Origin: Isurus oxyrinchus
Lineage: Eukaryota
Assembly: GCA_026770705.1 (NCBI GenBank)
Contig: JANJGN010000052.1
Location: 372,001-436,000, forward strand
DNA length: 64,000 nucleotides
Direction of reading: 5' to 3'
The stretch's first letter is position 1. Every line of letters starts with the position of its first letter. Below are positions 3,848 to 63,551 of this stretch, in pieces. Below the pieces are notes generated by a model. The model had not been told where the DNA came from, did not search any database, and saw only the letters and a list, made by a program, of their open reading frames with translations. A program made the translations under genes and the position numbers.

Positions 3848-3903
<56 letters not shown>

Positions 3904-6440: not shown

Positions 6441-6569
6441 GTAACGGACAATTAGCTCACTGGAGGAGGGGAATCCACAAATATCCCCATCCTCAATGAA
6501 GGGGGAGCCCAGCACATCAGGGCAAAAGATAAGGCTGAAGCATTTGCTACAACAATTATCCATTTCTGT

Positions 6570-10096: not shown

Positions 10097-10465
10097 CAGA
10101 AACGTGAAGCTGGGTTACAGGGTAATAGTTATGGCCCGGACCATTGTCAAATTCTATTCTGAAAATATAAGTTCCTGCATCTTCCCGTCTGATGTTGTTT
10201 ATAATCAGGGAACAGTCGCCATCTTTCAGGTCTCCAGACAGCCGGGTCCGATGGTGGAACCGTGGTAACTCGTGACTGTGATCCTTGGAGTGAAAGGCAA
10301 TGGGAGCCCAGGGAATCTGTTTCTCATTATTAAACCAGACTCCACCTCGCGGTTGGTTTTCCGGACACAATGGATAACTGTAATGACATGGAATCTGTAC
10401 ACACGAACCTTCCTGTGCTGTCACCTCTCGTGGACTGTCACCTTTCCACTCTTGTGAGGGTTTAT
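10097..10465 (-). CDS. Gene A: Siglec-type V-set exon V2, with the essential Arg (DAGTYIFRIE)
   Basis: ccag acceptor, gtaagt donor, 369 bp; EGSCVQIPC and GDCSL (B-E disulfide pattern), no F-strand Cys. Confidence 0.93.
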
Positions 10466-10522
10466 CTGGGGAGAGAAATCTCAATATTTAACTCTGGATG
10501 GTTTGTGGATCCACTAGACTCA

Positions 10523-11360: not shown

Positions 11361-11431
11361 CTTACCTTCTTAAAATATTAAAGCTGCAGAATAAACATGC
11401 AAGTGACTGACCCGCTCGACCCACCTTCCAT

Positions 11432-12385: not shown

Positions 12386-12459
12386 TGTTGCCGTGGATGA
12401 AGATAAAGGAGGAGATTACTGTAATAGGGAGGAAAAATATTCAAAAATTTGGACATTGA

Positions 12460-19954: not shown

Positions 19955-20179
19955 GGTAACCAGTGAGAAGATCGAGGATGTTTTGTGCTCTCAGCAAAAC
20001 GTTTACCATGTGATGATCTGTCAGCTCAAATTTGGGCAGCTGTAGTCATGAAGCTTCTCCATTGGCTCCGTGGGTTTAGACTCCTCCCCCTCACCTCGGA
20101 GGCTGAAACTCAGGCGATAAGAGTTCCTAATACAGGTCTCTGGCCTTATGATACATTTCAACGATCCCTGTTATCATTA

Positions 20180-22509: not shown

Positions 22510-22649
22510 TCAAACAGTCTGTCGACTTCCTTTCACTGTTTGTCTCTCCCAGACACAGACTCCAGTGATAGTGATAACCACAGCCACAAGGAATATCACA
22601 GCTCGTATTCCCAGGATCAGGATCACGTGCAGAATCTCTCCTCCACTGT
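22510..22649 (-). CDS. Gene B: TM exon with intramembrane Arg and short tail (SGGEILHVILILGIRAVIFLVAVVITITGVCVWERQTVKGSRQTV*)
   Basis: ttctctag acceptor, phase 1, 140 bp to TGA at 22510-22512; hand-translated (ORF track shows another frame). Confidence 0.85.
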
Positions 22650-24465: not shown

Positions 24466-24988
24466 ATGGCAGGAATCAAGAACCCCGTTCGCACGATTAC
24501 CAACAGAAAGTGAACAACAATTTATACTTAATGGAAAGACAGTGCTGATTGGTTGGCAAGTGGTCTCTGATAGGTGGAGGTGTTGCCGTGGAGAATGCTG
24601 TTTGCGATATGAGAAGTTTAGACAGCTTGTCTCTTCATTCAGCAATAATCATATAAAGATCAATTAACTTCTATCGACTGTGAAGCACTTTGAGTGGCCT
24701 GAGAATGTGGATACTGAGAACGGGCTGCACTGTCAGAGGGTCAGCGCTGAGGGAGTGCTGATGTAGAATGAAAGATGTCGGTACAGTTAATGCTTTTCAT
24801 CATTGATATTAAAGTGATTTTTAGAGGTTGCTTTGGGACTGAACTGGAAGCTATCACCAGGTTATTGAGAATCAGACAGTGTGTTATAATAAGCTGTGTT
24901 TTGTGTTATTATGTAAACGTCACAGTTTGTGTTATTTCCCATTGAGTGTTGGATGTGAATTGTTGAGTAATTATAACACAGCACTTAC

Positions 24989-25362
24989 CAGAAACGTGAA
25001 GCTGGGTTACAGGATAGTAGCTGTAACTATTCCTGCTGTCAAACTCTATTCTGAAAAAATAAGGTCCTGCATCTTCCCGTCTGATGTTGTTTATAATCAG
25101 GGAACAGTCACCATCTTTCAGGTCTCCAGACAGCCGGGTACGATGGCGGAATCTTTGATCCCTGTGATTGTGACCCTCGGAGTGAAAGGCTATAGACCAT
25201 TTAGGCTGTGGGTTCCCATCTATTCCTTTCAACCAGATTCTGCACGTGATCTCCCTACGAAATTTGATAAGTAACTGTAATGACATGGAATCTGTACACA
25301 TGAACCTTCCTGTGCTGTCACCTCTCGTGGAGTGTCACCTTTCCACTCTTGTGACAGTCCAA
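24989..25362 (-). pseudogene. Gene B: V-set pseudo-exon (Arg present: DAGPYFFRIE)
   Basis: 374 bp, frameshift near 25240-25270 splitting it over two ORFs; acceptor AG>CG relative to V1. Confidence 0.88.
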
Positions 25363-26065
25363 CGGGGGAGAGAAATATCAATATTTGACTCTGGATGGTT
25401 TGTAGATCCACTAGACTCGATATCCACCCCCTCCATCACTGGGGCACAGTGGCTGCAGTGTGGACCATCTACAGGACACACAAGGAACTCCCCAAGGTTT
25501 CACAACAGATAGAAGAGAATCCTGGACACAGGAGTGGACAAGTTCATTCTACATTGGCTCATGGTCCTCAGGACCCTGTTTAGTGAAGCCAGTCTTCCAT
25601 CCAACACAGTGTCTACAAGATACACAGGGAAACTGTGTAAATATCTCATCTCTCAACACTGAATGGGCTGAGCTTCAGTTTAACTTTCAGTATTTTTAAA
25701 TTTCCATATTGTGGTTGCTATGGTGAAACTGTGCAGGAAGTGTGAGGGCTGGACTCTCTGTCTATTCTCACTGCAGCTGTGATGTGGTCGTGGTGATTCT
25801 CAGTAAAATGAAACCCTCTGATCTCCTCCATCGCCGAGGTTTAGGGAGTGAATTCCAGAGCTCAGGTCCCAGGCAGCTGTAGGCACGGCCGCCAGTATTG
25901 GAGTGATGGGAATTGGGGGATGGTCAAGAGGCCAGATTTGGAGTAACACAGAGATCTGGGAAGTTGATTGGTTGCATTGCAGGAGGTTACAGAGATAAAG
26001 AGATAAGAATGATCTTTTACAAAGACTGTTAAATATAAATCTGTCGAAGCTGACGATGATATTAC

Positions 26066-33220: not shown

Positions 33221-33940
33221 CTGTGTATTTAATGAGAAAGGGTTGATGTCTCTCTGTGAGTCAAATCAGGAATTGGGGAACAATTGTGAAAACCCTTTCA
33301 TTGAAACGTAGGGCCTTAGTGTTGTGTTGTTAACAAACTGTTAACCCTTTGTGTCCTGACTCTGTGACGTGATTCCTGTGTAAAGCTGAGCAGTCGGTGA
33401 GCGAGTTTCAATTCACTGCTCACTCCAGGTGTTGAGGTGGATCTTCTGAAGGAGTAGATGTTGCTCAGCGCTCCTTAAAAATGTGAGAGACTGAACAACG
33501 TGTAAGAGGACGAGAGAAAGAATGAGAAGGAGAGCATTAGTGGAGATAAGAGAGAGTGAATGAGAGAGAGAGAGAATGAGAGAGAAAATGAGAAGGCGTG
33601 CATTAGTGGAGGTAAGAGAGAGAGTGAATGAAACATGGAAAAAGGAAAGAGATTGCATTCACTAACAAAAGAAAGGTTTTCATTTATATCGCACCTTTCA
33701 CAAACTCAGGAGGTCACAAGGTATCTTATGGTCCGGGTCAACCCTGCCAGTTACAGGACTGAGTTGTGAAACAGTGAGTGTTGGATGAGATGTTAAACGG
33801 TAGGTGAACATCAAAACTCTTCAGGGGCTGTGAAGGGTTTTGGATTGTAAAAGTTGCTATAGAAATGCAAGTTCTTTCTATAAGGAGAGAAGGTTGAAGA
33901 AAACATGTTCAAAAACAACCAATTAAACCTTCACACTTAC

Positions 33941-34037
33941 TTTCTCACACACTTGAAGATGAAGAATCCACTCAGTCCAACACTCAAACAGATTCCAGCT
34001 CCAAGCAATCCTGCTTTCCATTCATTGGAATCTCGCC
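33941..34037 (-). CDS. Gene C: TM exon (RRDSNEWKAGLLGAGICLSVGLSGFFIFKCVRK), no charged residue in the hydrophobic span
   Basis: ttttacag acceptor, gtaagt donor, 97 bp, phase 1 to 2; hand-translated. Confidence 0.88.
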
Positions 34038-34209
34038 CTGTAAAATCAGCCAATGAATGACTCCGGTACAGTTTGAGAATGGTTCCCTATGTACATGTAG
34101 TAATTCTGAACTTGTGAAGTGATATTGTCTATGCATGAAAGGTCTATACAAATAACATTTATCTATGTAATATTTATTGATAATATCCATGTACATGCAG
34201 GTTTCTATA

Positions 34210-35265
34210 AGGAGGATTCACATATAACAGGGGTGCCAAGCTGCTGAGGTGACACACAGGACTACATACACACCAAACAGCGGAAACAACATGCTACAGA
34301 CAGAGCAAAGCGATCCCACAACCAACGGGTCAGATCTAAGCTCTGCAGTGCTGCCACATCCAGTCATGAATGGTGATGGACAATTAAAGATCTAACAGGA
34401 GGAGGATGTTCCACAAATATCCCCATCCTTAATGATGGGGGAGCTCAGCACATCAGTGCAAACGACAAGGCTGAAGCATTGGCAACCATGTTCAGCCAGA
34501 AGTGCTGAGTGGATGATCCATCTCGGCCTCCTCCAGAGGGTCCCAGCATCACAGATGTCAGCTTTCAGACAATTCGATTGACTCCACGTGACATCAGGAA
34601 TCAGCTGATGATACTGGATACAGCAAAGGCTTTTGGCCCTGGCAACAACCCGGCAACAGGAAATAATGTGGTTACAAGAACGGGTAAGAGGCTGGGAACT
34701 CTGCGGTGAGTAACTCACCTCCTGACTCTCCAAAGCCTGTCCACCATCGACAAGGCACAAGTCAGGATTGTGATGGAATAATCTCCACTTGGCTGGATGA
34801 GTGCAGCTCCAACAACACTCAAGAAGCTCGACACCATCCAGGAGCAGCTTGTTTGATCGACAGCCCATCCACCAGCATAAACATTCATACCCTCCACCAC
34901 TGGCACACAATGGCAGCAGTGTATGCACCATCTACAAGATGCACTGCAGCAACTCACCAAAGCTTCTTCGACTGCACCTTCCAAACCCTTAACCTCTTCC
35001 ACCAAGACAGTTCCAAGTCAGTGAGGTGTGTGACTTGGAAATCAACATGAGGTGGTGGTCTGCCCTGGGACTTGGAACTATATCGGCCGTTCCTTCACCG
35101 TCGTTGGGTCAAAATCCTGGAACTCCCTCCCTAACAGCACTGTTGGTGTGCCTACACCACATGGACTGCAGTGGTTAAAGAAGGCAGCTCACCACCACCT
35201 TCTCAAGGGGCAGTTACAGATGGGCAATAATTTCTGGCCTTGTCAACAATGCCCACATCCCATGA
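34210..35265 (+). mobile_element. Deleted/degenerate CR1-L2-clade LINE fragments
   Basis: Shares segments with 56.4-57.5 kb (inverse) and 60.8-61.2 kb; KSWNSLPNS motif. Confidence 0.75.
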
Positions 35266-35303
35266 GCTAATAACAAGAGAATGTAGAATTCTGTGTAACT
35301 CAC

Positions 35304-35585
35304 GTTCCACAGTGATGGTTATGAATCCCTCCACTGCTCCATGTTCATTCTCTGCCACACACTGATAGTCTCCAGTGTCCCTGGATGTAACGTGAGGAAT
35401 CACCAACCACAGCTCATTGTTGGAACTTGTTCTGTTCATTGGGACATTAAGATGTCGCCACGTCAGGTTAGAAGCTGGGAAGCTCTCGACAGAGCAGATT
35501 ATCACTGTAGAATTCCCCTCAATTATATTGATCGATGAAGCGTTAATCATATCAAGAGAAGTAATTGAGAGGTTCTGTGGAGCAT
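35304..35585 (-). CDS. Gene C: C2-set exon (domain 5)
   Basis: tttag acceptor, gtgagt donor, 282 bp, open. Confidence 0.9.
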
Positions 35586-36064
35586 CTAAAAACATATAAA
35601 GATTTTAGAGTGAGCAAGCACAATGCACATCAAGACTCCATGTATCATCTCTCCGTATCTGATGTCTGAATACAATTCCAGGCACCTTCCTCAGCATAAG
35701 TTCCTCTGTCACATTTATAATGGACACTGCCTATGTAAACTGTCACACTGCAGTTGCATTCCCCCACCAGTTGAGGTGCTATCAATCTAGAATGAAAGAA
35801 ACTTTCATTCACATCCTCAGGATTTCGCCAAGCCTTTACAGGCAATGAATTGTATTTGATTGATGGAGCACTGAGGGGTAAATCTACAATTCACTGTTCA
35901 GGAGTTTGGTCATCCAATTCAGGGTCTTGTTGATCTGGAGTTTACCTTCGTTCCATCCAGAATTGGAGCTGACACCAAGACTCCAGTGCAGTGAGTGCGT
36001 GTGGGAGTGCATTTATGTATATGTGTTCAAATCTGAGAGAGTTGTTGAAGTCTGTGTAACTCAC

Positions 36065-36346
36065 GTTCCACAGTGATGGTTATGAACCCCTCCACTGCTC
36101 CATGTTCATTCTCTGCCACACACTGATAGTCTCCAGTGTCCCTGGATGTAACGTGAGGAATCACCAACCACAGCTCATTGTTGGAACTTGTTCTGTTCAT
36201 TGGGACATTAAGATGTCGCCACGTCAGGTTAGAAGTTGGGAAGCTCTCGACTGAGCAGATTATCACTGCAGAATACCCCTCAATTATATTGATCGATGAA
36301 ACGTTAATCATATCAAGAGAATTAATTGAGAGATTCTGTGGTGTGT
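36065..36346 (-). CDS. Gene C: C2-set exon (domain 4)
   Basis: ttcag acceptor, gtgagt donor, 282 bp, open. Confidence 0.9.
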
Positions 36347-36477
36347 CTGAAAACAAATAAAGATCAGTTACTTACATTGTCTGTGAAGCACTTTGAGAGG
36401 CCCTGAGAATGTGAAAGGTCTGATATCAATGTAGGTTCCTTCACCACAAAGCACTTAATTCAGGCAGTCACTACAGC

Positions 36478-37370
36478 TCAGTACTGAGGGAGTGCTGTAC
36501 TGTCGGAGGGTCAGTACTGAGGGAGTGCTGCACTGTTGGAGGGTGGGTACTGTGAAAGCTGCACTGCCGCATAGTCAGTATTGAGCGAGTACTTCACTGT
36601 CGGAGAATGAGTACTGAGGGAGTGCTGCACAGTTGGATGGTCAGTACTGAGGGAGTGCGGCACTGTCGGAGGGTCAGTACTGAGGGAGTGCTGCACTGTT
36701 GGATGGTCAGTACTGAGGGAGTGCTGCACTGTTGGATGGTCAGTACTGAGGGAGTGCTGCACTGTTGGAGGTTCAGTACTGATGGAGTGCTGCACTGTTG
36801 GATGGTCAGTACTGAGGGAGTGCTGCAATGTCGGAGGATCAGTACTGAGAGAGTGCTGCATTGTCAGAGGGTCAGTACTGAGGGAGTGCTGCACTGTCAG
36901 AGGGTCAGTACTGAGAGAGTACTGCACTGTCAGAGGGTCAGTACTGAGGGAGTGCAGCACTGTTGGATGGTCAGTACTGAGGGAGTGCTGCACTGTCAGA
37001 TGGTCAGTACTGAAGGAGTGCTGCACTGTTGGATGGTCAGTACTGAGGGAGTGATGCACTGTCGGAGGGTCAGTACTGAGGGAATGCTGCACTGTCGGAG
37101 GGTCAGTACTGGAAGAATGCTGCACTGTCGGATGGTCAGGACTGGAAGATTGCTGCACTGTCAGATGTTCAGTACTGAGGGAGTGCTGCTCTGTCGGAGG
37201 GTCATTACTGAGGAAGTGCTGCATTGTCGGAGGGTCAGTACTGGAAGAGTGCTGCACTGTTGCAGGGTCAGTACTGAGGGAGTGCTGCACTGTCGGAGGG
37301 TCAGTACTGAGGGAGTGCTGCACTGTCGGAGGATCAGTAATTAGGGAGATCTGCACTGTTGGAGGGTGAT
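36478..37370. repeat. 33-bp SINE-like minisatellite array
   Basis: About 27 units. Confidence 0.92.
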
Positions 37371-37374
37371 AAGA

Positions 37375-39650
37375 CCATAAGACCACAAGACGTCAGAGCA
37401 GAAGGAGGCCATTCGGCCAATCAACTCTGCTCCGCCATTCAATGACACCATGGCTGATCTGACAATCCTCAACTCCACTTTCCTGCCTCTTCCCCATAGC
37501 CTTTGATTCCCTGACTGATTAAAAAACTGTGTCTCTCAGCCTTGAATATAATTAATGACCCAGCCTCTGCAGCTCTCTGTAGTAAAGAATTCCACACATT
37601 CACTACCCTCTGAGAGAAGAAACTCCTCATCTCTGTCTTAAATGGGTGACCCCTTACTCTGAGATTATGCCCTCTGGTCCTAGACTCTCCCACAAGGGGA
37701 AACAACCTCTCAGCATCTACCCTGTCAAGCACCCTAAGAATCTTATATGTTTCAATAAGGTCAGCTCTCATTCTCCTAAACTCCAATGAGTACAGGCCCA
37801 TCCTACTCAACCTCTCCTCATATGAAAATACCTCATTACTGGGATCAACCTAGTGAACCTTCTCTGGACTGCCTCCAATGCCAGTACATCTTTCCTTAGA
37901 TAAGGGAACCAAAACTGCTCACAGTATTCTAGGTGTGGTCTAACTAGTGCCTTGTAAAGTTTTAGCAAGACTTCCCTATTTTTATACTCCATTCCCTTTG
38001 AAATAAAGGCCAACATTCCACCTGCCTTCCCTATTAACTGTTGAACTTGTATGTTATCTTTCTGATGACCCCCAAATTCCTCTATGCTTCAGCTTTCCAA
38101 TGTCTTTCTCCATTGAAATAATATTCAGCTCCTCTATACATCCTGTCACAGTGCAGCAGCTCACATTTTCCCACATTATATTCCATCTGCCAAGTTGATG
38201 TCCACTCACTGAACCTGTCTATGTCCCTCTGTAGACTCTTTGTGTCACCCTCACCACTTGCCTTCCCATCTATTTTTGTGTCATCCGCAAACTTGGCGAA
38301 AGTACATTAATTTCCCTCATCCAAGTCATTAATATATATTGTAAATAATTGTGGCCCCAGCACTGATCCCTGTGGCAATCCACAGGTTGACATCCTGAAA
38401 ATGCCCCCCTTATCTCAAATCTCTGTCTTCTCTTAGTTAGTCGATCCTCTATCCATGCTAATATACTGCCCCCAACACCATGGGCTCTTATCTTATTAAG
38501 TAGCCTTATATGTGGTAATTTACTGAACAACTTTTGGAAATCCAAATATATTACATCTACTGGTTCCCCTTTATCTATCCTGTTTGTTATCTCCTCAAGG
38601 AATTCTAATAAATTTGTCATGCATGATTTCCCCTTCATGAAGCCTGTGTGTGATTAAATTATGCATTTCTAAATAGTCTGCTATTACATCCTTTATAATG
38701 GACTCTAACATGTTCCCATTGACAGATGTTAAGCTAACTGGCCTATAGTTTCCTGTTTGTTGTCTCCCTCCCTTTTTGAATATGGGTGTTACTTTGGCAG
38801 ATTTCCAATCCTCTGGGAGTTTCCCAGAATCTAAGGATTCTTGGAAGATTAAAACCAGTGCATCCACTATCTCTGCATCTACTTCCTTTAATATCCTAAG
38901 ATGCAACCTATCAGGTCCAGGGGACCTATCAGCCTTGAGACCCATGACTTTCCCTAGTATTATTCTCTAGTGATAGTTACTGTATTTATTTCCTCCCCCC
39001 ACCCCCCTTTTGCCCCTTGATTATTTAGTATTTTTGGAATGCTATTAGTGTGTTCTACCGTGAAGACTGATGCAAAGTATTTATTCAACTCCTCTGTCAT
39101 TTCCTGGCTCCTCATTATTATTTCCCCAGCCTAGTTCTCTCAGGGGCCTATGTTCACTTTGGTCTCTCTCTCCCTTTTTATATATTTAAAGAAGCTTTTA
39201 CTGTCCTTTTTTTATAATTTGCTAGTTTACATAGTTTTCTGCCTCTTTATTTATTTTTTGGTCATCTTCTGTTGGTTTTTAAAACGTTCCCAATCCTCTG
39301 GCTTACCACTAACCATATTGCATGGTTTCTCTTTCAATTTGACACACGCCTGAACTTCTTTGGGTAACCCAGGTTGGTTTATTCTCTTCCTACAATCCTT
39401 CTTCCTCACCGGGATATATCTTTGTTGTGAGTCATGAGATATTTTCTTAAAGATCTGCCATTGTTCATCCAGCATCTTTTCTGCTAAACCCCTTTCCCAG
39501 TCCACTCCAGACAACCCTGTCCTTATTTCTTTGTAATTACACTTATTTAAGTCCAGCACAGTTGTTTCCGACCCAAGTTTCTCAGTCTCAGAGGGAATGC
39601 TGAATTGTACCAGGTTATGGTCATTTTTTTCCAGGGGATCATTTATTCTG
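37375..39650 (-). mobile_element. CR1 LINE (ORF2 RT plus 3' tail)
   Basis: GNYRPVSLTSV, KSCMTNLLEF, VDVIYLDFQK, LYKALVRPHLEYC. Confidence 0.93.
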
Positions 39651-39739
39651 AGATACAGTTCAGAGGAAAACCACCCATTAATATATCCCGTGTCAGTCAC
39701 ACCGTAGCAATAGAGAATTCCGATGGAATAGGGGCCTTT

Positions 39740-40440
39740 ACCCCAAGGAAGTGGGAATACAAAGAGGCTCGGAGAGATGCGTCAGGTTATAAATCTCTGC
39801 TCAGAGCCCACCTGCAGTTAGTGGCTTCAGTTGTGGGTCCCGCCCCTCAGGGAGGGTATATTGCCCTCCGAGGGGCTGCAGCCCAGAGTCACCAGAACGA
39901 TCCCGGGGCTGAAAGGGTTAAATTCTGAGGACAGGTTGCACAGACCAGGCTTGTGTTCCCTCGAGTCTTGAAGATTAAGGGGTGATCTAATCGAGGGGTT
40001 TAAGATGATTAAAGGATTTGATGGGGTCGATAGAGAGAAACTATTTCCCCTGGTGGTGGGGGTGAGGTGAGGGGGTGGGGGTGAGGGTGGGGGTGGGGGT
40101 GGGGGTGGGGGTGGGGGTGAGGGTGGGGGTGGGGGGGTGGGGGTGGGGGTGAGGTGAGGGGGGGTCCAGAACAAGGGGGCAGAATCTTAAAATTGGAGCC
40201 AGGCCGTTCAGGGGGTGATGTCAGGAAGCAATTCTTCACACAAAGGGGGGGTGGAAATCTGGAACTCTCTCCCCCAGAAAAAGCTGTCGAGGCTGGGAGG
40301 GGTCAATTGTAAATTTCAAAACTGACATTGGGAGATTTCTGTTGGGTCGGGGGGTGTTTAAGGTTTAAGGAACCGAGCTGGGTGGATGGGGTTAATATAC
40401 AGAACAGCCGTGATCTGATTGAATGGGGGAACAGGCTGAT
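39740..40440 (+). mobile_element. CR1-derived element with internal (GGGGGT)n tract at 40050-40165
   Basis: CR1 3' ORF2 homology; paralogs at 32690-32970 and 54310-55400 (inverse). Confidence 0.8.
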
Positions 40441-41021
40441 TATTGAATGACTGGGAATGTCAGCCCAGTGTATGGATCGCCAATCTCTAGAATGGGAGGA
40501 TTCCTCTTCTATTGGAATTCATTCAGTAATGTGGGCATCACTGGCAGGGCCAGCGTTTATTGCCCATCCCTAGTTGCCCCTTGAGAAGGCGGTGGTGAGC
40601 CGCCCGCTCGAATACAACTGAGTGGCATGCCCGGCCCATTCAGAGGGGCAGTTAAGATTCCCCTGTGGGTCAGGAGTCACATGTAGGCCAGACCGGGTAA
40701 GGATGGCAGAATTCCCTCCCTAAAGGAGATTACTGGCCCAGATGGGTTTTTACAACAATCTGGTAGTTTCATGGTGACCATCACTGAGAATTGTGAACAA
40801 ACTGTGGAGAAATGTCGACTTGCCAGCCAATCAGCACGCCCTCTTCCCCCGCATCAGAAATGGCTGTTCCCTTTGAGATTGGGTTTTCTCGTGACTCTGT
40901 CCTGACGAGGATTGAAACCTTCGACAGCATGTTTTCAGCAACACCCAAGGGGAGATTTGGTTCACCTCGGAGTTTGGACAAGATGTGGAATTGTTTAAAA
41001 GTCAGGATTGAAATTACTCAC

Positions 41022-41279
41022 ATTCAGTGGGAATTCTAATGGGCAGAGACTGGGAACTGCCCAGGATACTTGTTGCTTCACAGTAGTAGGAGATTTCCTC
41101 ATCGAATCCATAAGGAACTGTAATAGTTTGACCAGCGAGCGCGAGATTCGTCATCTTTCCTTGGGAGATCTTAAACCAGGTGAAATTGTGGACTGCTGGA
41201 TTCCCGTCACTGGAACAACTTAGAGAAATCACCTTTCCTTTTTCCAGTGTCAGCCTGACAGACGTGTTGTGAGGAGAAT
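41022..41279 (-). CDS. Gene C: C2-set exon, domain 3 (DSPHNTSV...LSCSSDGNPAVHNFTWF...YYCEATSILG)
   Basis: aag acceptor, gtgagt donor, 258 bp, phase 1/1. Confidence 0.88.
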
Positions 41280-41787
41280 CTTTCAAATACAAAATTATCA
41301 ACACATTAAACACTGAGTGTGATGGAATTCTCTCCAGTTGCCGGGATGAGTGCGGCTCCAACAACACTCAAGAAGCTCGACACCATCCAGGACAAAGCAG
41401 CCCGATTGATTGGCATCCCACCCACCATCTTCAACATTCACTCCCTCCACCATGAACACACATTGTTAGCAGTGTGCACCATTTTATTAGTGATGATCTT
41501 ATATTGATGGCCCCTAACTCTTCGTCACTCCGACAAGTGGAGACATCTTCTCCACATCTACCCTATCGAAACCCTTTCACCATTTTAAGGACCTCGATGA
41601 GGTCACCCCCTCAGCCTTCTCTTTTCTAGAGAAAAGAATCCCAGCTTGTTCAGTCTTTCCTGATAGCTATAACATCTCAGTTCTGGAATCATCCTTGTCA
41701 ATCCAACTTGCGCCTTCTCCAATGCCTGATTTAATAGGAGACCGACTCCCCCTCCATCACAAGCATGATGTTCTAATCAATACTTAC

Positions 41788-42075
41788 ACTTTACACTCAG
41801 AGTAACGGAGCTGACCACTCGATGGCTGGTTTGAGGGTAGTCGCACGTACAGCGGAGAGTTCGTCCATGATGCTTGAACGAAGGGTTAAAGGTCAGTAGA
41901 GCGGAAACCTCACCACCGTTCTCTGTAATGTTGCTGACCGATGAAGTCAGCAATTCACTCCAGGTTAGATTGGGGTGGTTATCAGGGCAGGTGTAGAGGC
42001 ATTTACAGATGATATGTGCAGGAGTCCCCTCCTGTAAATCCTTCAGGAGCACAATAACTGGCTTATCTGGAGCAT
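41788..42075 (-). CDS. Gene C: Siglec domain-2-type C2 exon (DAPDKPVIV...ICKCLYTCPDNHPNLTW...HHGRTLRC)
   Basis: tacag acceptor, gtaagt donor, 288 bp; Cys+6 interdomain cysteine. Confidence 0.9.
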
Positions 42076-42159
42076 CTGTAATAGAAAGTTCCAGATGTTA
42101 ACTGACAAGCAGAAAACAATTTGTATTTGTCCTCTGATTTTTCAATAGGGTCACAGACA

Positions 42160-42620
42160 CTCAGAACACAGAAGGAGGCCATTGGCCCATCCAGTTCATG
42201 CTGTCTCTCTGTAGAGCAATCCAATCAGTCCCATTCCCCCCGCTCTGTCCTCGTATCCCTGTGAGTTTATTTCCAATTGTCCGTCCAATTTCCTTTTGAA
42301 ATTGTTCATCGTCTCCACTTCCACCATCCTCGTAGGCAGCGAGTTCCAGCTCATTACCACTCGCTGTGTAAAAAAGTTCCTCCTCACATCGCCCCCCACC
42401 CACAACCTTCAATCTGTGTCCCCCGGTCCTTGTACCATCAGCTAATGGCAACATCTTCTCTTCGTCTACCTTATCTAAACCCATCATCATCTTGTACACC
42501 TCGATCAGATCCCCCCTCAATCTCCTTTGTTCCAAGGAGAACAACCCCAGCTCCTCCAACCCAACCTTGTAGCTAAAATCCCTCATCCCTGGACCCATTC
42601 TGCTCAATCTCCTCTCCACC
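42160..42620 (-). mobile_element. CR1 LINE 3' fragment, close paralog of 21.9-22.4 kb
   Basis: LGLFSLEQRRLRGDLIEVYK. Confidence 0.9.
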
Positions 42621-42639
42621 CAGAAGCAAAAAATCAGTT

Positions 42640-43050
42640 CAGATCAGTACTCTTATCTCGCAGTTTTACTGGTGTTCTATATTATTCTATACAAGACCAG
42701 TTTGGACCAGTACTCTTATTTCCCAGTTTAACTGGTGTTCTATATTAAGCTATGCAAGACCAGTTTGGACCAGTACTCTTATTTCCCAGTTTAACTGGTG
42801 TTCTATATTAAGCTATACAAGACCAGTTTGGACCAGTACTCTTATTTCCCAGTTTTACTGGTGTTCTATATTAAGCTATACAAGACCAGTTTGGACCAGT
42901 ACTCTTATTTCCCAGTTTTACTGGTGTTTTATATTAAGCTATACAAGACCAGTTTGGAGCAGGACTCTTATTTCCCAGTTTTACCACTGTTATATGTTAA
43001 GCTATACAAGACCAGTTTGGAGCAGGACTCTTATGTCCCAGTTTTTACAG
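42640..43050. repeat. 63-bp minisatellite, about 6 copies
   Basis: agtttggaccagtactcttatttccc recurs at 42699, 42762, 42825 etc. Confidence 0.92.
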
Positions 43051-43679
43051 TTTTGTCCTCTTGGACACCCTTTCTGAAGCTCTTACATCTTTCCTGAAGT
43101 GTGGAGGCCCAGCGTTCTGAACAATATTCCAGCTGAGTTCTAACCAGTGATTTATAAAGTTCCCGCATGATCTCTTTGCTTTTAACTCAGTTCCTCAGTC
43201 TGTTAACACAAGGAAGACATTTTCTTTCTTCATCACCTCAACAATTTGTCCTTTAATCTTTCAGAATGAGTGCAGAGAGACGCCCAGGTCTCTGCTCACC
43301 TACACCTGTCCAAATCATTACTGTCCAATATCTGTCTGTATTCATCCTGACAAAGTGCGTCACTTCACACGACACTGCGCTGAACTGCATCAGCCATGTG
43401 TCTGCCCACCTCACACTGATCCTGCCCCTCTCATGCCCAATCTCTCCTTATCACTACCCACGGCTTTGCCAAGTTTCATTCCATCAGAAAACATCATCAC
43501 TGAGGGACACTTAGCGATTGCCAGCTTCAATGTGTGAGAGCAGATTCTGCTCTGCAATTCCACGTAACTCCAGGCTGACATGCTCCAGTTAACACATGGG
43601 GATGTGGAGCAGTTGCAGCTGAAGTGGGAACAACAGTAAAGTTAAAAACATTTTGATACAAGTGATAATTCTCAGACAG

Positions 43680-44030
43680 AGCAGCACTCACTCGGCAAAG
43701 ACCCCCCAACGGTGCAGCACTCCCTCAATACTGACCCCCCAAAGGTGCAGCACCCCCTCGGTACTCACCCTCCGACAGTGCAGAACTCCCCCTGTACTGA
43801 CCCTCCGACAGTACAGCACTCCATCAGTACTGACCCGGTGACAGTGCAGCACTCCCTCAGTACTCACCCTCCGACAGTGTAGCACTCCCTCAGTACTGAC
43901 CGTCCGACAGTGCAGCACTCCCGCAGTACTGATGCTCTGACAGTGTGGCACTCGCTCAGTACTGACCCTCCGACAGTGCAGCACTCCCTCAGTACTGACC
44001 CTCTGACAGTGTGGAACTCCCTCAGTACTG
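43680..44030. repeat. 33-bp SINE-like minisatellite (inverse orientation)
   Basis: cagtactgaccctccgacagtgcagcactccct units. Confidence 0.9.
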
Positions 44031-44162
44031 CACCAGATCACATACTGGACTTTGTTCTGACATCTCCTGGAGCAGGAATTCAACCCATGACTGCCTGGCT
44101 CTGAGATGAGAACATGACCCCCTTGTGCTGATAGACTGAGTGTGAAAGGAACTGGGACTTAC

Positions 44163-44519
44163 CAAGAACCTGGAGTTGGACTGGTTGTGTAAAAGTGTGA
44201 TCTGTGTAGCCCTCCACATCCACATAAAAGTAATACACATCACTATCTTCAGCTCTGAGACTGTCAATCCTCACCGAACAATTCTTCCCTTCCAAGTCGC
44301 CGATTATTTTAGCACGTCCCACGAATGTGGCCATCGCATAGTTGGGATCTTTGGTGTATGTGATGGTATATTTCCATCTATACCAATATTTATACCAAGC
44401 TCCGTGCAGTGCTGTGTAAGAGTGGGAAGGAAAGTCAAAGCTACACGGAATAACCACACAAGAGCTGCTGATGGCCCTCCGAGACAGCGCCTTCATAGAC
44501 CATCCCTCTGACGTCACTC
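44163..44519 (-). CDS. Gene C: Siglec-type V-set exon, Arg position occupied by Tyr (DSDVYYFYVD)
   Basis: tttcag acceptor, gtaagt donor, 357 bp; SSCVVIPC and KNCSV Siglec cysteines. Confidence 0.92.
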
Positions 44520-44589
44520 CTGAAAGGCAACAAGGGAAGAGACAGGACATCAAAAAGCAGAATATTACTTCAATGGAGAGAGGCAGCAG

Positions 44590-46460: not shown

Positions 46461-46519
46461 GATACGGAAGGATTTAAGACCTGCTCATGATTTCAGCTCA
46501 AAACCCAGGCAGATTCTCC

Positions 46520-47085
46520 CCAGTGAGGGAGTGCTCAGGGGGTGCTGCACTGTCAGAGGGTCAGTGCTGAGGGAGTGCTGCACTGTCAGAGGGTCAGTGC
46601 TGAGGGAGTGCTGCACTGTCAGAGGGTCAGTACTGAGGGAGTGCTGTACAGTCAGAGGGTCAGTACTGAGGGAGTGCTGCACTGTCGGAGGGTCAGTACT
46701 GAGGGAGTGCTGTACAGTCAGAGGGTCAGTACTGAGGGAGTGCTGTACTGTCAATGGGTCAGTACTAAGGGAGTGCTGCACTGTCAGAGTGTCAGTACTG
46801 AGGGAGTGCTGCACGGTCAGAGGATCAGTACTGAGGGAGTGCTGCACTGTCGGAGGGTCAGTGCTGAGGGAGTGCTGCACTGTCAGAGGGTCAGTACTGA
46901 GGGAGTGCTGCACTGTCAGAGTGTCAGTACTGAGGGAGTGCTGCACTGTCAGAGGGTCAGTACTGAGGGAGTGCTGCACTGTCGGAGGGTCAGTACTGAG
47001 GGAGTGCTGCACTGTCAGAGGGTCAGTACTGAGGGAGTGCTGCACTGTCAAAGGGTCAGTACTGAGGGAGTGCTGCACTGTCAGA
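46520..47085. repeat. 33-bp SINE-like minisatellite array
   Basis: About 17 units; part of a block duplicated at 48.9-49.85 kb. Confidence 0.92.
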
Positions 47086-48120: not shown

Positions 48121-48954
48121 GAGACCATGCTGTACAGAAGAGATTTGACAGGAGCAGCAAGTGTTTTACTTACAGGAGAATGAGTCCCCAGGGTCGTAGA
48201 GTCAATCCTGTCAGATGAATGTCTAACTGGAGACACTTCAGGGAGCTGATCTAATTCTGGAAATGTTCAGTTTACCAGGATCGGAGGAGAGATGATCTTC
48301 CTCTCCTGACTGCATCGGACACGAGGTGAACTGGCTCTGGGAGGAGGGTCAGTGTTAACCCAGTTTTTCTGTGTTTGAGGGAGATGTGAAACTGGGGAAG
48401 TCACGTGGTTTTTTGGTGTGGTCACTCCATGTCTTTATTTGGTGCAGCACTCATTTAGTTCATGTCGTTGTTTCAATGCTACAAAACCACAGTGCATTCT
48501 GGACTATTTCTGCCTGACCTGCTGTCAGATACACACAGTCTGACAGAGAGGCGGAAAAGTGGTCCCTAGCAACCTGTATGACTGTNNNNNNNNNNNNNNN
48601 NNNNNNNNNNNNNNNNNNNNNNNNNNNNNNNNNNNNNNNNNNNNNNNNNNNNNNNNNNNNNNNNNNNNNNNNNNNNNNNNNNNNNNNNNNNNNNNNNNNN
48701 NNNNNNNNNNNNNNNNNNNNNNNNTATGCACACGCATACAAACACACGCTCACACACAAACTCACACACACACATACATGCACATTTTCTCTTTCTCTCT
48801 CTCCTTCTCTCTCTCACACAAACACACTCTCACTCTCTCCCACACATTGTCTTTCTCTCCCACACACTCACACACTCTTTCTGTCTCTGAGACGGAATGT
48901 TGGGGTTTGAGACCGTCTCAAGGTTACAGCTCAAAACGCAGACAGACTCTCCCC

Positions 48955-49680
48955 AGTGAGGGAGTGCTGAGGGCGTGCTGCACTGTTGGAGGGTCAGTGC
49001 TGAGGGAGTGCTGCATTGTTGGAGGGTCAGCACTGAGGAACTGCTGCACTCCCAGAGGGTCAGTACTGAGGGAGTGCTGCACTGTCACAGGGTCAATACT
49101 GAGGGAGCGCGGCACTATCAAAATGTCAGTAGTGAATCAGTGCTGAACTGTTGGACGGTCAGTGTTGAGGGAGTGCTGCACTGTCAGAGGGTCGGTACTG
49201 AGGGAGTGCTGCACTCCCAGAGGGTCAGTACTGAGGGAGTGCTGCACTGTCAGAGGGTCAGTACTGAGGGTGTGCTGAACTCCCAGAGGGTCAGTACTGT
49301 GGGAGAGCTGCACTGTCGGAGGGTCAGTACTGAGGAAGTGCTGCACTGTCGGAGGGTCAGTGCTGAGGGAGTGCTGCACTGTCGGAGGGTCAGTACTGAG
49401 GGAGTGCTGCACTCCCTGAGGGTCAGTACTGAGGGAGAGCTGCACTGTCAGAGGGTCAGTACTGAGGGTGTGCTGAACTCCCAGAGGGTCAGTACTGAGG
49501 GAGAGCTGCACTGTCGGAGGGTCAGTACTGAGGGAGTGCTGCACTACCAGAGGGTCAGTACTGAGGGAGTGCTGCACTGTCCGAAGGTCAGTAGTGAGGG
49601 AGTGCTGCACTGTCAGAGGGTCAGTACTGAGGGAGTGCTGCACTGTCAGAGGGTGGGCACTGAGGGAATGCTGCTCTGTC
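48955..49680. repeat. 33-bp SINE-like minisatellite array
   Basis: About 22 units. Confidence 0.92.
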
Positions 49681-49988
49681 AGACCTGCCATATTTCAGAT
49701 GACATTTGAAATTAGCAACATGCCTCATGTATAATTATATATCATTAGCTCAAAATAAATAGAGTATTCCTGTACGTTTCACTTTACTGTAAATTGTTTG
49801 CAGTTTCATTTCCTTAGAAACCAGGCTTGTGTGATCACTATTTTTAAATAATGTTAATAATAAAGATGCAACAATGCACACGCACACAGATACACACACA
49901 CACACACACACACACATACACAGACGTTCACACTGACACAAGCTCGCACAGGCAGACACACACACATACACAGAAAGGCAGACAGACA

Positions 49989-57500: not shown

Positions 57501-58740
57501 TATGATGTGGTAGATGATGTGTGCCGGGGGACCAAATCCACAAGGGAAACTTGGTCACACTATCACAACAGTTTTGCGATTTGTATTTATTATGAGATGT
57601 GTGCACTGAATTCAGGAGTAATGTGTCAACCAAGACATTTAGAGATCTTAAAAATTAAATTTTAATATTTATTTAAGATTTAAAGCACACACATAAGGAT
57701 ACGGTTACTACTATAACAAATCCTAAACTTCCTAATTAACCTTGAAGATGGTGGACAGGCATTGGGAAGTCTGGAAGTGAGCAGTAAAACTCCTTTTAGG
57801 CAATAAACCAAAATAGATTTTAGATTTAAAAACAGAACCAGCAAGTTAACACAGAACACACTTGAGAGTGGATTTCCAAATGGCTTTCTCGAACGACAGT
57901 CGCTGAACATAACAGACCTATGGACAAATGCCTGGAGGCTTCTTCAAGGCTGATTCACACACTCTTGTTAGATTTTACATGATCCCCAACATAGCCTTTC
58001 ATTCTCCTTTGTTGATGTTTCTCTCTCTTTGATATGTAAATTTCATTGTTCCATATGTCTTTGGAATGATACATTTCCCATAATATAAAAACTTTCATGT
58101 TGCCAATGTTGTCAATAACCTTTGGGAAAAATAAACACACTCCTTTGCCTTGCATATCGGCCTCGTTGTAAACAGACCAACAGCCCTTTGAAATCCAAAC
58201 AATCCCTTCACTTACCTAAAAATTAAAATTCTCTTTCTCACCTCACATGCAAAGAAAGCCTCCATGTTCACTCATTAGCATTTCAAGTACATTTCTACAC
58301 CTAGCTTCTTTTGATAATCTCAAACTTGCAGTCTACCTGACTCCAGGTGTAATTAAACCACACAGACAGACCCATCTACACTCACACCCATAAACCTAGT
58401 TTACAACAAACCAGGAAAATATTAAGCAAATTATTATACTTTCGTACCACCCCTGATTCCCATTGACTCCAGTTTTACTCGGGATCCTAGATGCCACACT
58501 CGGTCAAATGCAGCCTTGATGTCAAAGGCAGTCACTCTCACCTCACCTTGTATTAACAGATGTTAAATTATACATAATTCATAAGCTTCTCACAATCTTT
58601 TACAGCATGGAAAAAGGTGCAGCATTCAGAAAGCTCACTCAGAACCAATAAAAAAAAGTTGAGCAACATCATATTTCTGTTCATTACTATTTGGCCATGT
58701 TGGCTGCACACACCCCACAGCCCCGCTCCCTGTTTCACAC

Positions 58741-58989
58741 TCAGTTTTTCTGGAACCTGATCTGTGCGTATTCCGTGTCCTCGCTCCTGTGCACAGTCCT
58801 GTCACCGCCGGGCAGCTTTGGAAAGTTGATGTTGGCGTAGAGAAGCTTGGCGGGATTGTCGGGGTTCCCATGTCCAACATCGCCTCCCACTGGACCTTCA
58901 GAGAGATCCCGGGGAGCTGGGGTCTCCCCCTCACTAGTTGTGTCTCTGGTTGTGTTCCGGGGCTCAGTAATCAGCACGTTCTGTTTACC
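58741..58989 (-). CDS. Gene D: distal terminal cytoplasmic exon with ITIM LLYANI and ITSM-like TEYAQI
   Basis: ctctgtag acceptor, phase 0, 249 bp to TGA; motif pair as in CD33-related Siglec tails. Confidence 0.88.
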   Translation of the reverse strand, partial: GKQNVLITEPRNTTRDTTSEGETPAPRDLSEGPVGGDVGHGNPDNPAKLLYANINFPKLPGGDRTVHRSEDTEYAQIRFQKN

Positions 58990-59480
58990 CTACAGAGAAA
59001 TGGAAACAGAAGATATCCTCACATCAATTACTGGTACTGATAGGGTTAAATTATTGTGCAGCCTCATTAGTGTCAGTCGTATCTCAGTGGGTTTAACCCT
59101 TTTTTTCACTCTCTTTCTCTGTCTCTCTCGCTTTCTCTCTCTCTTTATAATTTAATCTCTATCACACTCCAACAGTGCAGCACTCCCTCAATACTGACCC
59201 TCTGACAGTGCAGCACTCCCTCAGTGCTGACCCTCCGACAATACAGCGCTCCCTCAGTACTGACCCTCTGTCAGTGCAGCACTCCCTCAGTACTGACCCT
59301 CCAACAGTGCAGCACTCCCTCAGTACTGACCCTCCAACAGTGCAGCACTCCCTCGGTAATGGCTCTGGTGAGTGATGGCTTGGAATCTGCACACAGGTGC
59401 CTGGTGTGAGGCTCAATAACATGAACCTTGTAATCAGAGAGAGGATGAGAGAGAGGGAGAGAGGAGGGACAGAGACAGAG

Positions 59481-60413
59481 TGTTATTAATCTATTAATGT
59501 TTGTATTATAAATGCAAACTGTCTTTTTAAACAGAGGTTTAGTCTGTGTGTGTGTCTGTGTGTATTTTAATTGGATTAAAGCCAGCCAGTCTGGGTGCTT
59601 TGATGTATAGTAGTTTTCAGATGTAAACAAAGAGGTAAAGTGGTAATTTGCATTTTTAAATAAAACATTAAATGCCTGAGAGTGAAATCTTAAACCAATC
59701 AACGTTTATATTACTAATAAAATTGATACGATGAAAGGGGATTTATTATTGGAAGAGATGGAGTTCAAAGGTCCTGATGATACATTGCGAATTTACCTTC
59801 AAACAGAAGCCATAAGACCATCAGATATAGGAGGAGAAATTAGACCATTCGGTCCATCGAGTCTGCTCCACCATTCATACATGGCTGATATGTTTCACAA
59901 ACCCCATTCTCCCACCTTCTCTCCTAACCTTTGATCCCCTGACCAATCAAGAGCCCATCAATCTCCGTCTTCCTTACACTCAAGAGCTGGGTATAACTTG
60001 AGCAGTTTTGTGTGTGCAGAACAGAGGCTTGTAACATCAAAGCAGCTGTAAGCCTACACCTGTCTGCAAAGGAACCAAAGTGAAAGGAACCTCATTTGGA
60101 ATTTGTGAGGTGAAAATGCTTTGCCTGGGTGTCTGCTTAAAGATAATGGGTTGTCTTAGAGGAGATTAGTTTGAGAATTTGTTAAAAATTTATGATGATA
60201 CTAGTTTGTAGCCATGTGCATATGTTTAACTTGTGTAAATTAATATATGTCTCAAGTAGTTTGATATAAAACCATCTCAAGAACTGGTGGTCTTATTCCT
60301 GAATTTAGAGCTGCATCTCAAACATTCCACTGGGAAATATAGGTTATGACAGTTGTTTAAAGTTTCCCTCTGGGATTTTAAACAACAGCCTTTACCAGTT
60401 TCTGTGTCATAAT
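59481..60413 (+). mobile_element. Probable solo LTR with a CR1-tail insertion (~59800-59980)
   Basis: Paralog of 62580-63333. Confidence 0.55.
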
Positions 60414-60549
60414 AGAGAGACAGCATGATACTGAACCATTGCTGACTCCACAGATACAAATCAGTGGGTAACTGGGCTGGGAATCTGGGACATGTGTTGT
60501 CTACACACTGAGATTGAAGCTTTGGAGTGAGTGTAAACAGCTCCTGTAC

Positions 60550-60631
60550 CTGGTGCTTCACACAGAGTGAACTGGGGGTCAATGCAATGTCTCTGGTCCC
60601 TGAAACTCTCTCCTCCATCGCTGTCTTTCTC
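60550..60631 (-). CDS. Gene D: distal juxtamembrane cytoplasmic exon (RKTAMEERVSGTRDIALTPSSLCVKHQ)
   Basis: ttgcag acceptor, cag|gtacag donor, 82 bp, phase 2 to 0, fits terminal exon. Confidence 0.8.
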
Positions 60632-61820
60632 CTGCAATAACACAATATGACACTGTGGTTATCATATAGCAGAGAGTCAGTGCAGCACAGACATAGAGCA
60701 CACTGTAACCTTACACCAATGACTGGACTGTCTCTTTAAATCACTTCTGCACAAAGCACAGAATCTAGAATCTTGACACCATCCAGGACAAAGCAGCCCG
60801 ATTGATCTACACCCCATCCCCCACATTAAACATTCACTCCCTCCACCATGAACACACAGTGGCAGCAGTGTGTGTACCATCTACAAGATGCACTGCAGCA
60901 ACTCAGCAAGGCTCCTTCAACAGCACCTTCCAAACCCACGAACTCTACCATCTAGAAGGACAAGGGCAGCAGACACATGGGAACACCACCACCTGGAAGT
61001 TCCCCTCCAAGTCACTCACCATCCTGACTTGGAAATATATCACCGTTCCTTCATTGTCGCTGGGTCAAAATCCTGGAACTCCCTCTCTAACAGCACTGTG
61101 GGTGTACCTACACCACATGGACCGCAGCGGGTCAAGAAGGCAGCTCACCACCACCTTCTCAAGGGCAATTAGGGATGGGCATTAATGCTGACATCACCAG
61201 TGACAGACACATTCGATGAAAGAATTAAAAATCTCACAGCTCAATCTATTTATTGTGACCCTGCTGCACACACTCCCTGTCGAAGGAGCCTTTGTGGTTC
61301 TATTGTTAATCGAAGCAGATCAGAGTTACTACAACCACTTGCATTTATATAGCACCTTCAATGTAGCAAAATGTCCTAAGGCTCATCTGGGGATTGTTAG
61401 TGACATCTTCACCTGACTCTGAGGCACATGAGGAGATATTAGGGACAGGAGACCAACAGCTGAGTCAACAAAGTCAGTTATTAACGGGCATCTTAAAGGA
61501 GGAGCTGGAGATAGGGAATGAGAGACAGACACAGAAAGAAAGACAGAGACAGGGAGAGAGAGAGAGAGAGAGAGGGAGAGAGCGAGAGAGAGAGGGAGAG
61601 AGAGAGAGAGAGAGAGAAAGACAGTGAATCTCTATCCCCAATGGCTCAGCATCCAGTCCTCTCTGGAGAAGCATTTCATTCCAAACCACACCAACCGCAG
61701 CCCAATTCCATCCCTTCCTCCCTCTTTCCCCCTCTCCCCCAGTGGGTGTTTCCTGTTCCCAGGAATCTCAATCACTACCCCCACCCCCATACCTCCTCAC
61801 TCACTCTCCCCATTTCTCAT

Positions 61821-62069
61821 TCAGTTATGCTCGAACCTGATCTGTGCGTATTCCGTCTCCACTTCCCTGTGGACAGACCCATCACCACTGGACATCCTCA
61901 AGACTTGGGGATTGGCGTAGAGAAACTCTTCAGGTTTGTCAGGGTTCCCATGTCCAACATCGCCTCCCACTGCATCTTCAGAGAGACCCCAGGGAGCTGG
62001 GGTCTCCCCCTCGCCAGTTGCGTCTCTCTTTGTGTTCTGGGGCTCAGTAATCAGCACGTTCTGTTTACC
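61821..62069 (-). CDS. Gene D: proximal terminal cytoplasmic exon, ITIM altered to FLYANP, TEYAQI retained
   Basis: Intact acceptor, 249 bp, open to TGA. Confidence 0.85.
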   Translation of the reverse strand, partial: GKQNVLITEPQNTKRDATGEGETPAPWGLSEDAVGGDVGHGNPDKPEEFLYANPQVLRMSSGDGSVHREVETEYAQIRFEHN

Positions 62070-62579
62070 CTACAGAGAAATCGAAACAGAAGTTATCCTC
62101 ACATCATTTACTGGCACTGATAGGGTTAAATTATTGTGCAGCCTTGTTAATGTCAGTCGTGTCTCAGTTGGTTTAACCCTCTCTCTCATGTCATATGAAA
62201 GATACCACCTATGGCAGTGCAACGCTCCCTCAGGACTGACCCTCCGACAGTGCAGCACTCCCTCAGTACTGACCCTCCGACAGTGCAGCGCTCCCTCATT
62301 ACTGACCCTCCGACAGTGCAGCGCTCCCTCAGTACTGACACTCCGACAGTGCAGCTCGCCCTCAGTACTGACCCTCCGACAGTGCAACACTCCCTCAGTA
62401 CTGACCCTCTGTCAGTCTTGCACTCCCTCGGTAATGGTTCTGGTGAGTGACAGTTGGATTCTGCACTCAAGTGTCTGGTGTGAAGCTCATTAACATGCAC
62501 CTTGTAATCAGAGAGAGGATGAGAGAGAGAGAAAGAGAGAGAGAGAGAAAGAAAGGGAGGTTGGGATAGAGAGAGAGAC

Positions 62580-63333
62580 TGTCATGATGCGATTAATAAA
62601 TATCATGTTATTGGAAATTATTTTTATTCACATCGGGGTTTAGTCTGTGGGTGTGTCTGTGTGTGTTTTAATTGGATTAAAGCCAGCCAGTCTGGGTATT
62701 TGATGTATAGTAGTTTTGAGATGTAAACTGAGGCATAAAAATTTGTATTTTTAAACAGAGCATTCAAAACCTGAGAGTGAAATCTTAAACCAATCAATAT
62801 TTATTTTATTGATAAAATTGATACTATGACAGAGGATTTATTGTTTGAAGGGATGGAGTTCAAAGGTCCTGATGATACAATTAGAATTTACATTCAAAGA
62901 GAAGAGCTGGGTATAACTTGAGCAGTTTTGTGTGTGCAGAGCAGAGGCTTGTAACATCAAAGCAGCTGTAAGCCTACACCTGTCTGCAAAGGAACCAAAG
63001 TGAAAGGAACCTCATTTGGAATTTGTGAGGTGAAAATGCTTTGCCTGGGTGTCTGCTTAAATTCTATGGGTTATCTTAGAGGAGATTAGTTTGGGAATTT
63101 GTTAAAAAGTTATGATAATACTAGTTTGTAGCCATGTGCATATGTTTAACTTGTGTTAATTAATAAATGGCTCATGTAGTTTGATATAAAACCATCTCGA
63201 GAACTGGTGGTCTTATTCCTGAATTTAGAGCTGCATCTCAAACATTCCACTGGGAAATATAGGTTATGACAGTTGTTTAAAGTTTCCCTCTGGGATTTTA
63301 AACAACAGTCTTTACCAGTTGCTGTGTCATAAC
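62580..63333 (+). mobile_element. Probable solo LTR (TG...CA ends)
   Basis: tgtcatg...tcataaca termini with internal AATAAA. Confidence 0.6.
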
Positions 63334-63469
63334 AGAGAGACAGCATGATACTGAACCATTGCTGACTCCACAGGTACAAATCAGTGGGTAACTGGGCTGG
63401 GAATCTGGGACATGTGTTGTCTACACACTGAGATTGAAGCTTTGGAGTGAGTGTAAACAGCTCCTGTAC

Positions 63470-63551
63470 CTGGTGCTTCACAGAGAGTGAACTGGGGCTC
63501 AATGCAATGTCACTGGTCCCTGAAACTCTCTCCTCCATCGCTGTCTTTCTC
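63470..63551 (-). CDS. Gene D: proximal juxtamembrane cytoplasmic exon (RKTAMEERVSGTSDIALSPSSLSVKHQ)
   Basis: 82 bp, phase 2 to 0, intact splice sites. Confidence 0.8.

Follow-up and report, generated by a model that had tools for sequence, protein, structure and literature searches.

The window analysed here is a stretch of 64,000 nucleotides of the Isurus oxyrinchus genome (assembly GCA_026770705.1, contig JANJGN010000052.1, positions 372,001 to 436,000 of the forward strand). It contains, on the minus strand, the cytoplasmic tail exons of a Siglec-like receptor gene, and these exons are present twice. Upstream of the tail the gene has a leader, two V exons, four constant-type immunoglobulin (Ig) exons and a transmembrane (TM) exon. 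The TM exon is single and uncopied, and lies just outside the window (G000:C52:436274-436370), 722 bases upstream of the first tail exon. The second V exon matches the Pfam families V-set (2.3e-11) and Ig_CD22 (4.4e-09), and its FFRIE aligns with the FFRVE of Siglec-5, including the sialic-acid-binding arginine (E 7e-15). The best solved-structure matches of this domain are human Siglec-5, -7, -8 and CD33, with Siglec-5, -7 and -8 at 55–58 bits, slightly above MAG (49.6) and sialoadhesin (47.2). Several hallmarks of a Siglec were found, namely a V-set domain with the binding arginine, C2-type Ig domains, one TM segment and a cytoplasmic tail. The first V exon is without the binding arginine and carries a stop. 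Among named proteins, the tail is closest to Siglec-like models from the white shark (Carcharodon) and the basking shark (Cetorhinus), at 61–88% identity.

The tail is encoded by two exons, here called A and B, each with a second copy downstream. The features, all on the minus strand, are:

63470..63551, minus strand: tail exon A1, 82 nt, entered in phase 2 and left in phase 0 (RKTA...VKHQ); follows the TM exon
61821..62069, minus strand: tail exon B1 in full, with its stop at 61821..61823
61837..62069, minus strand: B1', which is B1 up to an internal donor, 233 nt; predicted internal exon of a chained tail
61908..61925, minus strand: FLYANP, a tyrosine motif in B1; fails the ITIM (immunoreceptor tyrosine-based inhibitory motif) consensus, Y-x-N retained
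61839..61856, minus strand: TEYAQI, first copy, in B1; ITSM (immunoreceptor tyrosine-based switch motif) consensus
61831..61839, minus strand: internal 5' splice site CAG/GTTCGA, phase 2, fitting the A2 acceptor; cut at 61837/61836
61821..61836, minus strand: remainder of B1 (FEHN-stop), the start of an intron if the donor is used and otherwise an alternative end
61249..61254, minus strand: AATAAA, 567 nt past the B1 stop and adjoining the duplication breakpoint; possible polyadenylation (poly(A)) signal for a short end
60632..61241, minus strand: copied last 610 nt of the TM-A1 intron, from block comparison
60550..60631, minus strand: tail exon A2, 82 nt
58741..58989, minus strand: terminal tail exon B2, 82 codons and a stop (58741..58743); equivalent site CAG/GTTCCA, without G at +5
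58828..58845, minus strand: LLYANI, in B2; an ITIM by the wider consensus, also Y-x-N
58759..58776, minus strand: TEYAQI, terminal copy, in B2; ITSM consensus

A sequence-only reading of the window had described a tandem copy of the last two exons of one receptor gene, and the copy is real, with both exon pairs intact. As that reading had it, splice sites and frames are open throughout, with AG acceptors on all four exons and GT donors on the A exons; the internal donor of B1 had been missed. No Ig or TM exon was found between the tail copies in the window and the adjoining DNA. The copies are identical at 79 of 82 positions for A1 and A2 and at 205 of 249 for B1 and B2. The 44 differences between the B exons are clustered, as had been noticed: 26 fall in codons 48–71 and none in codons 72–79, which encode TEYAQIRF, and the densest 30 bases hold 15 of them (permutation p 0.00095). 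TEYAQI satisfies the ITSM consensus TxYxxI/V (PMC13358205, in the part of the text available) in both modules. The claim that one module has an ITIM and the other has none is sustained in part. FLYANP fits neither of two ITIM definitions, and LLYANI fits S/I/V/LxYxxI/V/L, which permits I at +3 in the accessible sections of PMC5856374 and PMC12582321, and not the stricter xYxxL/V given in those of PMC13358205, PMC2832619 and PMC7226832. A Pfam search found no domain in either B exon.

Could the duplication be an artefact of assembly, either an uncollapsed haplotype or a false tandem arrangement? The two copies of the block around the A exons (59982-61241 and 62902-64163, the latter reaching 163 bases outside the window) have 95% identity, and certain entire loci from separate contigs are almost identical and could be haplotigs. 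However, the block around the B exons (58726-59809 and 61806-62904) is only 80% identical, the same layout is found in 23 sampled stretches on several contigs, and two-module models come from independent assemblies of two other genera, the white shark among them. The layout shared by these stretches and the models refute an artefact of the tandem arrangement, which we regard as extremely improbable. One 33-base minisatellite forms arrays across the cluster (20173-21567, 36478-37367, 43671-44030, 46519-47085, 48952-49683, 59164-59361 and 62208-62436), and its arrays also lie within both A-B introns.

How are the two exon pairs used? Each B copy has its own stop and AATAAA signal (at 57673 and 57591 for B2), as alternative last exons require, and alternative last-exon choice was the mechanism first proposed. 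The last codons of B1, however, contain a 5' splice site whose phase fits the A2 acceptor. When TM-A1-B1'-A2-B2 are joined, the frame stays open and encodes a tail of 216 residues, with the motifs in the order FLYANP, TEYAQI, LLYANI, TEYAQI, and 187 of the 216 residues are identical in white shark model XP_041037215. We consider it probable that the two pairs are spliced in series through this donor. The main product is then likely to be a single tail of 216 residues that carries four tyrosine motifs, with the ITIM-type motif in the last module, instead of two alternative tails of 111 residues. Against the donor consensus, the B1 internal site agrees at 6 of 9 positions, the A-exon donor also at 6 and the B2 site at 5; use of the A-exon donor, equal in score to the B1 site, is seen in contigs of three sequencing runs.

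Gene models of other sharks carry the junction that serial splicing would produce. Among 73 proteins fetched, which include isoforms, other sharks and one unrelated protein, 19 contain TEYAQIR followed directly by (R/K)(K/T)(T/K)A; they represent 11 gene models, eight of Carcharodon and three of Cetorhinus. RefSeq models with the TEYAQIR-RKTA junction and two-module tails are XP_041037215-221, XP_041037234, XP_078389744 and XP_078389619, so the two-module junction is already present in RefSeq, under generic names and unremarked. None of the 73 contains RFEH, the mark of a protein ending at a B1-type stop, at the level of annotation, and none has a tail of four or five modules. In one white shark gene isoforms X1, X2 and X6 have both modules, X4 is TM-A2-B2, X5 is TM-A1-B2 with the distal B alone, and X3 has a frameshift from B1' to B2 and ends without an ITIM-type motif. 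Similar skip forms are possible in the window gene, all in frame. Switching on top of chaining may occur as well, because skip isoforms are annotated in the white shark. The proposed choice between tails with and without an ITIM survives to this extent, through exon skipping and the internal donor and not through choice of a last exon.

The donor was followed across the family in 215 B exons from 121 stretches. Each of the 90 B exons with GT and G at +5 has an A exon behind it, at a distance of about 1.2 kb. The full site is missing from all 97 terminal B exons, in 68 through absence of the +5 G and in 29 through loss of GT by a silent AGG-to-AGA change. An advance prediction that third modules bearing the donor should be internal was correct in seven of seven cases, and 14 of 14 GT-less modules checked are without a following A exon. 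All 91 GT-bearing internal modules sampled share one breakpoint, with the last 610–612 nt of the TM-A1 intron copied. The weight of the donor pattern lies in the contrast between lineages and in its persistence across three genomes, not in the count.

Several points weigh against serial splicing. Because of the single shared breakpoint the 90 of 90 are one origin and not 90 tests. Three followed modules are without a full donor (L070; L150 and L151) and 25 modules were left unclassified; among GT-less modules, two counter-examples came to light later by aimed fetching, and their breakpoint differs from the common one. The internal donor looks weak, with T and C at +3 and +4. Annotated isoform sets usually rest on aligned transcripts; the white and basking shark models are automated, with read support not visible. 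The window copy itself is damaged, by the stop in its first V exon and by the loss of 2 nt where one of its C2 exons begins. The four runs compared are presumed to be RNA; three of them stem from a single sample, and whether their species matches is uncertain. The comparison took in window positions 58300-61679, a region that B1 lies outside. The B1'-A2 joint is not among the 15 joints listed there (113 further joints exist). The joint from A to a B2-type exon, with GT-AG ends, is seen in contigs of runs X1–X3 and not of run X5, and cannot distinguish single-tail from multi-tail genes. The AK allele of B2 that the window carries, present in 5 of 71 modules of that type and always distal, was not read in any of the four runs, although contigs drop rare variants and the runs may come from other individuals or species. 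Depths of the contigs listed (3–160 past the B1 stop, 34–1167 past the B2 stop, about 4–547 in introns) are unfit for ranking the two ends and were not used. A search of short proteins across the B1'-A2 junction gave one candidate and nothing significant. Added to these are the B1 stop and its AATAAA, both retained, with about 67 AATAAA matches in the 90 internal modules.

This last point is what regulated alternative ends would lead one to expect. If B1 were mainly read to its stop and polyadenylated, or skipped in favour of the distal module, the chained form would be minor. The signal downstream of B1 is of a kind common in internal modules, every skip form is in frame, isoforms X3, X4 and X5 are annotated in the white shark, and the constraint on exon frame described below is equally compatible. 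However, not one of the 73 proteins stops at a B1-type end while 19 run through, and alternative ends leave unexplained why the donor is present in followed and not in terminal modules, and why some genes have three or four near-identical ITIM-less internal modules. In addition, junctions of the X4 and X5 type could stem from mis-mapped reads of single-tail paralogs, whereas a B1'-A2 junction cannot arise from them. Alternative ends as the main output therefore seem unlikely to us, and last-exon choice as the main mechanism, which the sequence-only reading had put forward, is not upheld.

Another possibility is that one module alone is in use and that the others are debris which frequent unequal crossing-over has left in an unstable cluster, the window copy perhaps being a pseudogene. 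Tail pairs without a TM or first A exon seen upstream, as B-A-B fragments, occur in 24 sampled stretches, 12 of them checked over 16 kb (L022, L033, L035, L038, L046, L049, L052, L054, L060, L065, L072 and L096); several face an oppositely oriented Siglec-like gene, and this recurrent class of orphans may consist of inversion remnants. No constraint on amino acids is detectable, which also counts against serial splicing: the ratio of nonsynonymous to synonymous differences (pN/pS) is 0.74–1.35, the highest value being that of internal modules of TM-bearing genes. The copies are 88–100% alike, so that intactness may reflect recency, and the window copy has its two lesions. On the other side, 101 distinct substitutions but not one insertion or deletion (indel) were counted in the 90 internal B exons, and 25 substitutions and no indel in the 93 later A exons, while flanks of 233 nt have 3–22 indels per 70–119 substitutions. 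Exceptions to this test are one first A exon with a 1-nt deletion and one 80-nt intron segment without indels. The chained layout is also common to three mackerel-shark genomes. Of the four closest paralogs, three are unbroken in the exons covered and one carries a stop in its B1, and unbroken V-C1-C2-TM exons are found in five genes of four to five modules and in three close two-module paralogs. The two damaged exons of the window copy are both of phase 1-1 and could be skipped in frame. Debris is in our judgement quite unlikely as the explanation of the repeated modules. Since the exons are free of indels yet pN/pS is not depleted, the sequences suggest that the frame is retained while spacer residues drift.

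Where stops do occur in B exons, four lie before or within the motifs and three near the end. Of the four early ones (L049, L097 and L107 in module 1; L033 in module 2), three hit the tyrosine codon of YAN, in different module backgrounds, and the resulting tails are motif-free.

The steps that would lead to serially spliced tails can be proposed. YANP is derived, because tail-bearing models of other sharks have Y-x-x-I as the first motif, in single tails; these are models of Mustelus, Scyliorhinus, Rhincodon, Stegostoma, Chiloscyllium, Hemiscyllium and Pristiophorus. Alignment of ITIM-type and ITIM-less modules with a 1-base insertion after YA-N and a 1-base deletion about 14 bases on scores 27, against 21 ungapped, and a compensated frameshift is a likely cause of the ITIM-less motif. 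One ancestral duplication in the mackerel sharks may then have put a copy of the tail behind a module whose ITIM was already lost, the +5 G would have converted a latent site into a working donor, and unequal crossing-over afterwards would have varied the number of modules between one and five. If the donor is used in I. oxyrinchus, as we infer, each internal module would add one ITSM-type and one Y-x-N site. The number of modules would be predicted to set how many SH2 proteins a receptor docks, with SHP-1/2 at ITSM and ITIM-type sites and Grb2-type proteins at Y-x-N.

The family is large and varied. Exact-pattern searches for three end types gave 192, 106 and 124 matches, the first and third overlapping, so that the patterns point to roughly 300 or more terminal-exon copies of Siglec-like type (192 + 106). 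Another pattern, GCACAGATCAGGTTTAA, misjudged the third end type and had one match, unrelated, and P0071, found in three stretches, is an unrelated low-complexity protein. The 121 stretches surveyed come from the first 100 listed matches of the first end type and from further matches, those of the other two end types among them; they are neither a full nor a random sample and may include haplotype copies. The TM exon is present in 94 of them, of which 49 have one module, 32 two, six three, six four and one five, though a few of these genes may continue past the fetched stretch. The layout of the window occurs in 23 stretches; a further 37 carry one tail alone, of YANINF type, and another 12 have just one tail, which is ITIM-less. 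This shows that tails with and without an ITIM also exist as separate genes. Where a YANINF-type module is present in the sampled genes it is always last, and many multi-module genes hold ITIM-less modules exclusively. The pairing of one module with an ITIM and one without is contradicted as a family rule by these genes and by the 12 single ITIM-less tails. Internal modules without the ITSM tyrosine (TELAQI) but with the donor are found in module 1 of L056, L102 and L116; in L085 a surplus B exon of YANINF type, not preceded by an A exon, stands at 11605-11853 of the joined stretch, and L095 has CG in place of an AG acceptor.

Other parts of the window also belong to the Siglec-like cluster. 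A gene at 33940-44541 (minus strand) differs in V type, and its TM exon has diverged; from there to the next gene, at about 26.1 kb, neither an A nor a B tail exon was found. At 22513-22650 (minus strand), and again at 87.4 kb in the extension, there is an end of activating type: a short TM exon in terminal position that has an arginine within the membrane segment and lacks a tyrosine tail. A V exon at 24956-25435 (minus strand) is split across two frames and probably broken. Window positions 1393-13399 and G000:C52:438585-450340 share blocks 97–98% identical, 65 kb apart, and the gene at the start of the window is a sister copy, with L019 as its two-module tail.

How do these tails compare with known systems? 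In the IgH C-mu4 exon, which decides between secreted and membrane IgM, an internal 5' splice site is combined with a downstream stop and poly(A) signal. B1 is likewise a composite of internal 5' splice site, stop and possible poly(A) signal. In the shark, in contrast, the exons that follow downstream duplicate the tail, and a regulated choice is hypothetical. The shark genes resemble the inhibitory CD33-related Siglecs (human Siglec-5, -7, -8, -10 and CD33) in their V-set domain with the F-F-R-x-E arginine, C2-type domains and TM, and in a last exon whose proximal motif is of ITIM type and whose distal motif is an ITSM (PMC13358205, available text). Orthology to the CD33 group is hypothetical. 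They differ in that the tail exons are repeated one to five times per gene and are predicted to be chained by an exonic donor, in having an ITIM-less module class, and in the roughly 300 or more terminal-exon copies. CD22 (Siglec-2) also has a long tail of several tyrosines, with ITIMs and a Grb2-binding Y-x-N site (PMC5302901, in the portion accessible). CD22, however, is a single conserved gene, and in the shark the number of motifs differs between paralogs by duplication of whole modules.

Splicing is already known to alter the tyrosine motifs of immune receptor tails. In the accessible sections of PMC2110893, PMC5856374 and PMC12582321, motifs are gained or lost by splicing in the CEACAM1 L and S forms, in horse CEACAM1 paralogs and in Botryllus FcoR3/FcoR4. 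There, as far as those sections go, CEACAM1 and FcoR3/FcoR4 have motifs removed or swapped by exon skipping, shifted donors and intron retention, whereas in the shark a chain of duplicated terminal exons would multiply them. Removal or exchange of tail motifs by splicing is thus established; chained tails made by duplication of tail exons were not found described. A literature search over main texts, with few subscription papers covered, found no account of Siglec tails in sharks or of duplicated terminal exons joined in a chain. In the available text of the whale shark genome paper, Siglecs receive one passing mention.

Taken broadly, a hundred or more Siglec-like receptors of mackerel sharks might have their signalling strength set by accordion tails of two to ten tyrosine motifs. 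One base change would have opened a donor in the part of the last exon that encodes the ITSM, each added tandem copy of the tail exon pair would then be spliced in frame, and skipping or early polyadenylation would also let one gene switch between long, ITIM-only and ITIM-less tails. We put this forward tentatively, with somewhat more doubt than conviction. Teleost genomes have been reported to be without inhibitory CD33-related Siglecs (PMC7226832, in the text available), and the very large cluster of Siglec-like genes with tyrosine motifs in this shark is a contrast of interest for Siglec evolution. In paired and inhibitory receptor families it is usually the ligand-binding end that diversifies, and tails are exchanged or lost, while here the signalling end is the unit of copy number. 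How a duplicated terminal exon becomes usable can be read in the sequence, as a donor in the last codons of internal copies that is absent or destroyed in terminal ones. The genes with one to five modules form a natural series in which it may be asked how the number and order of motifs change the recruitment of SHP and Grb2.

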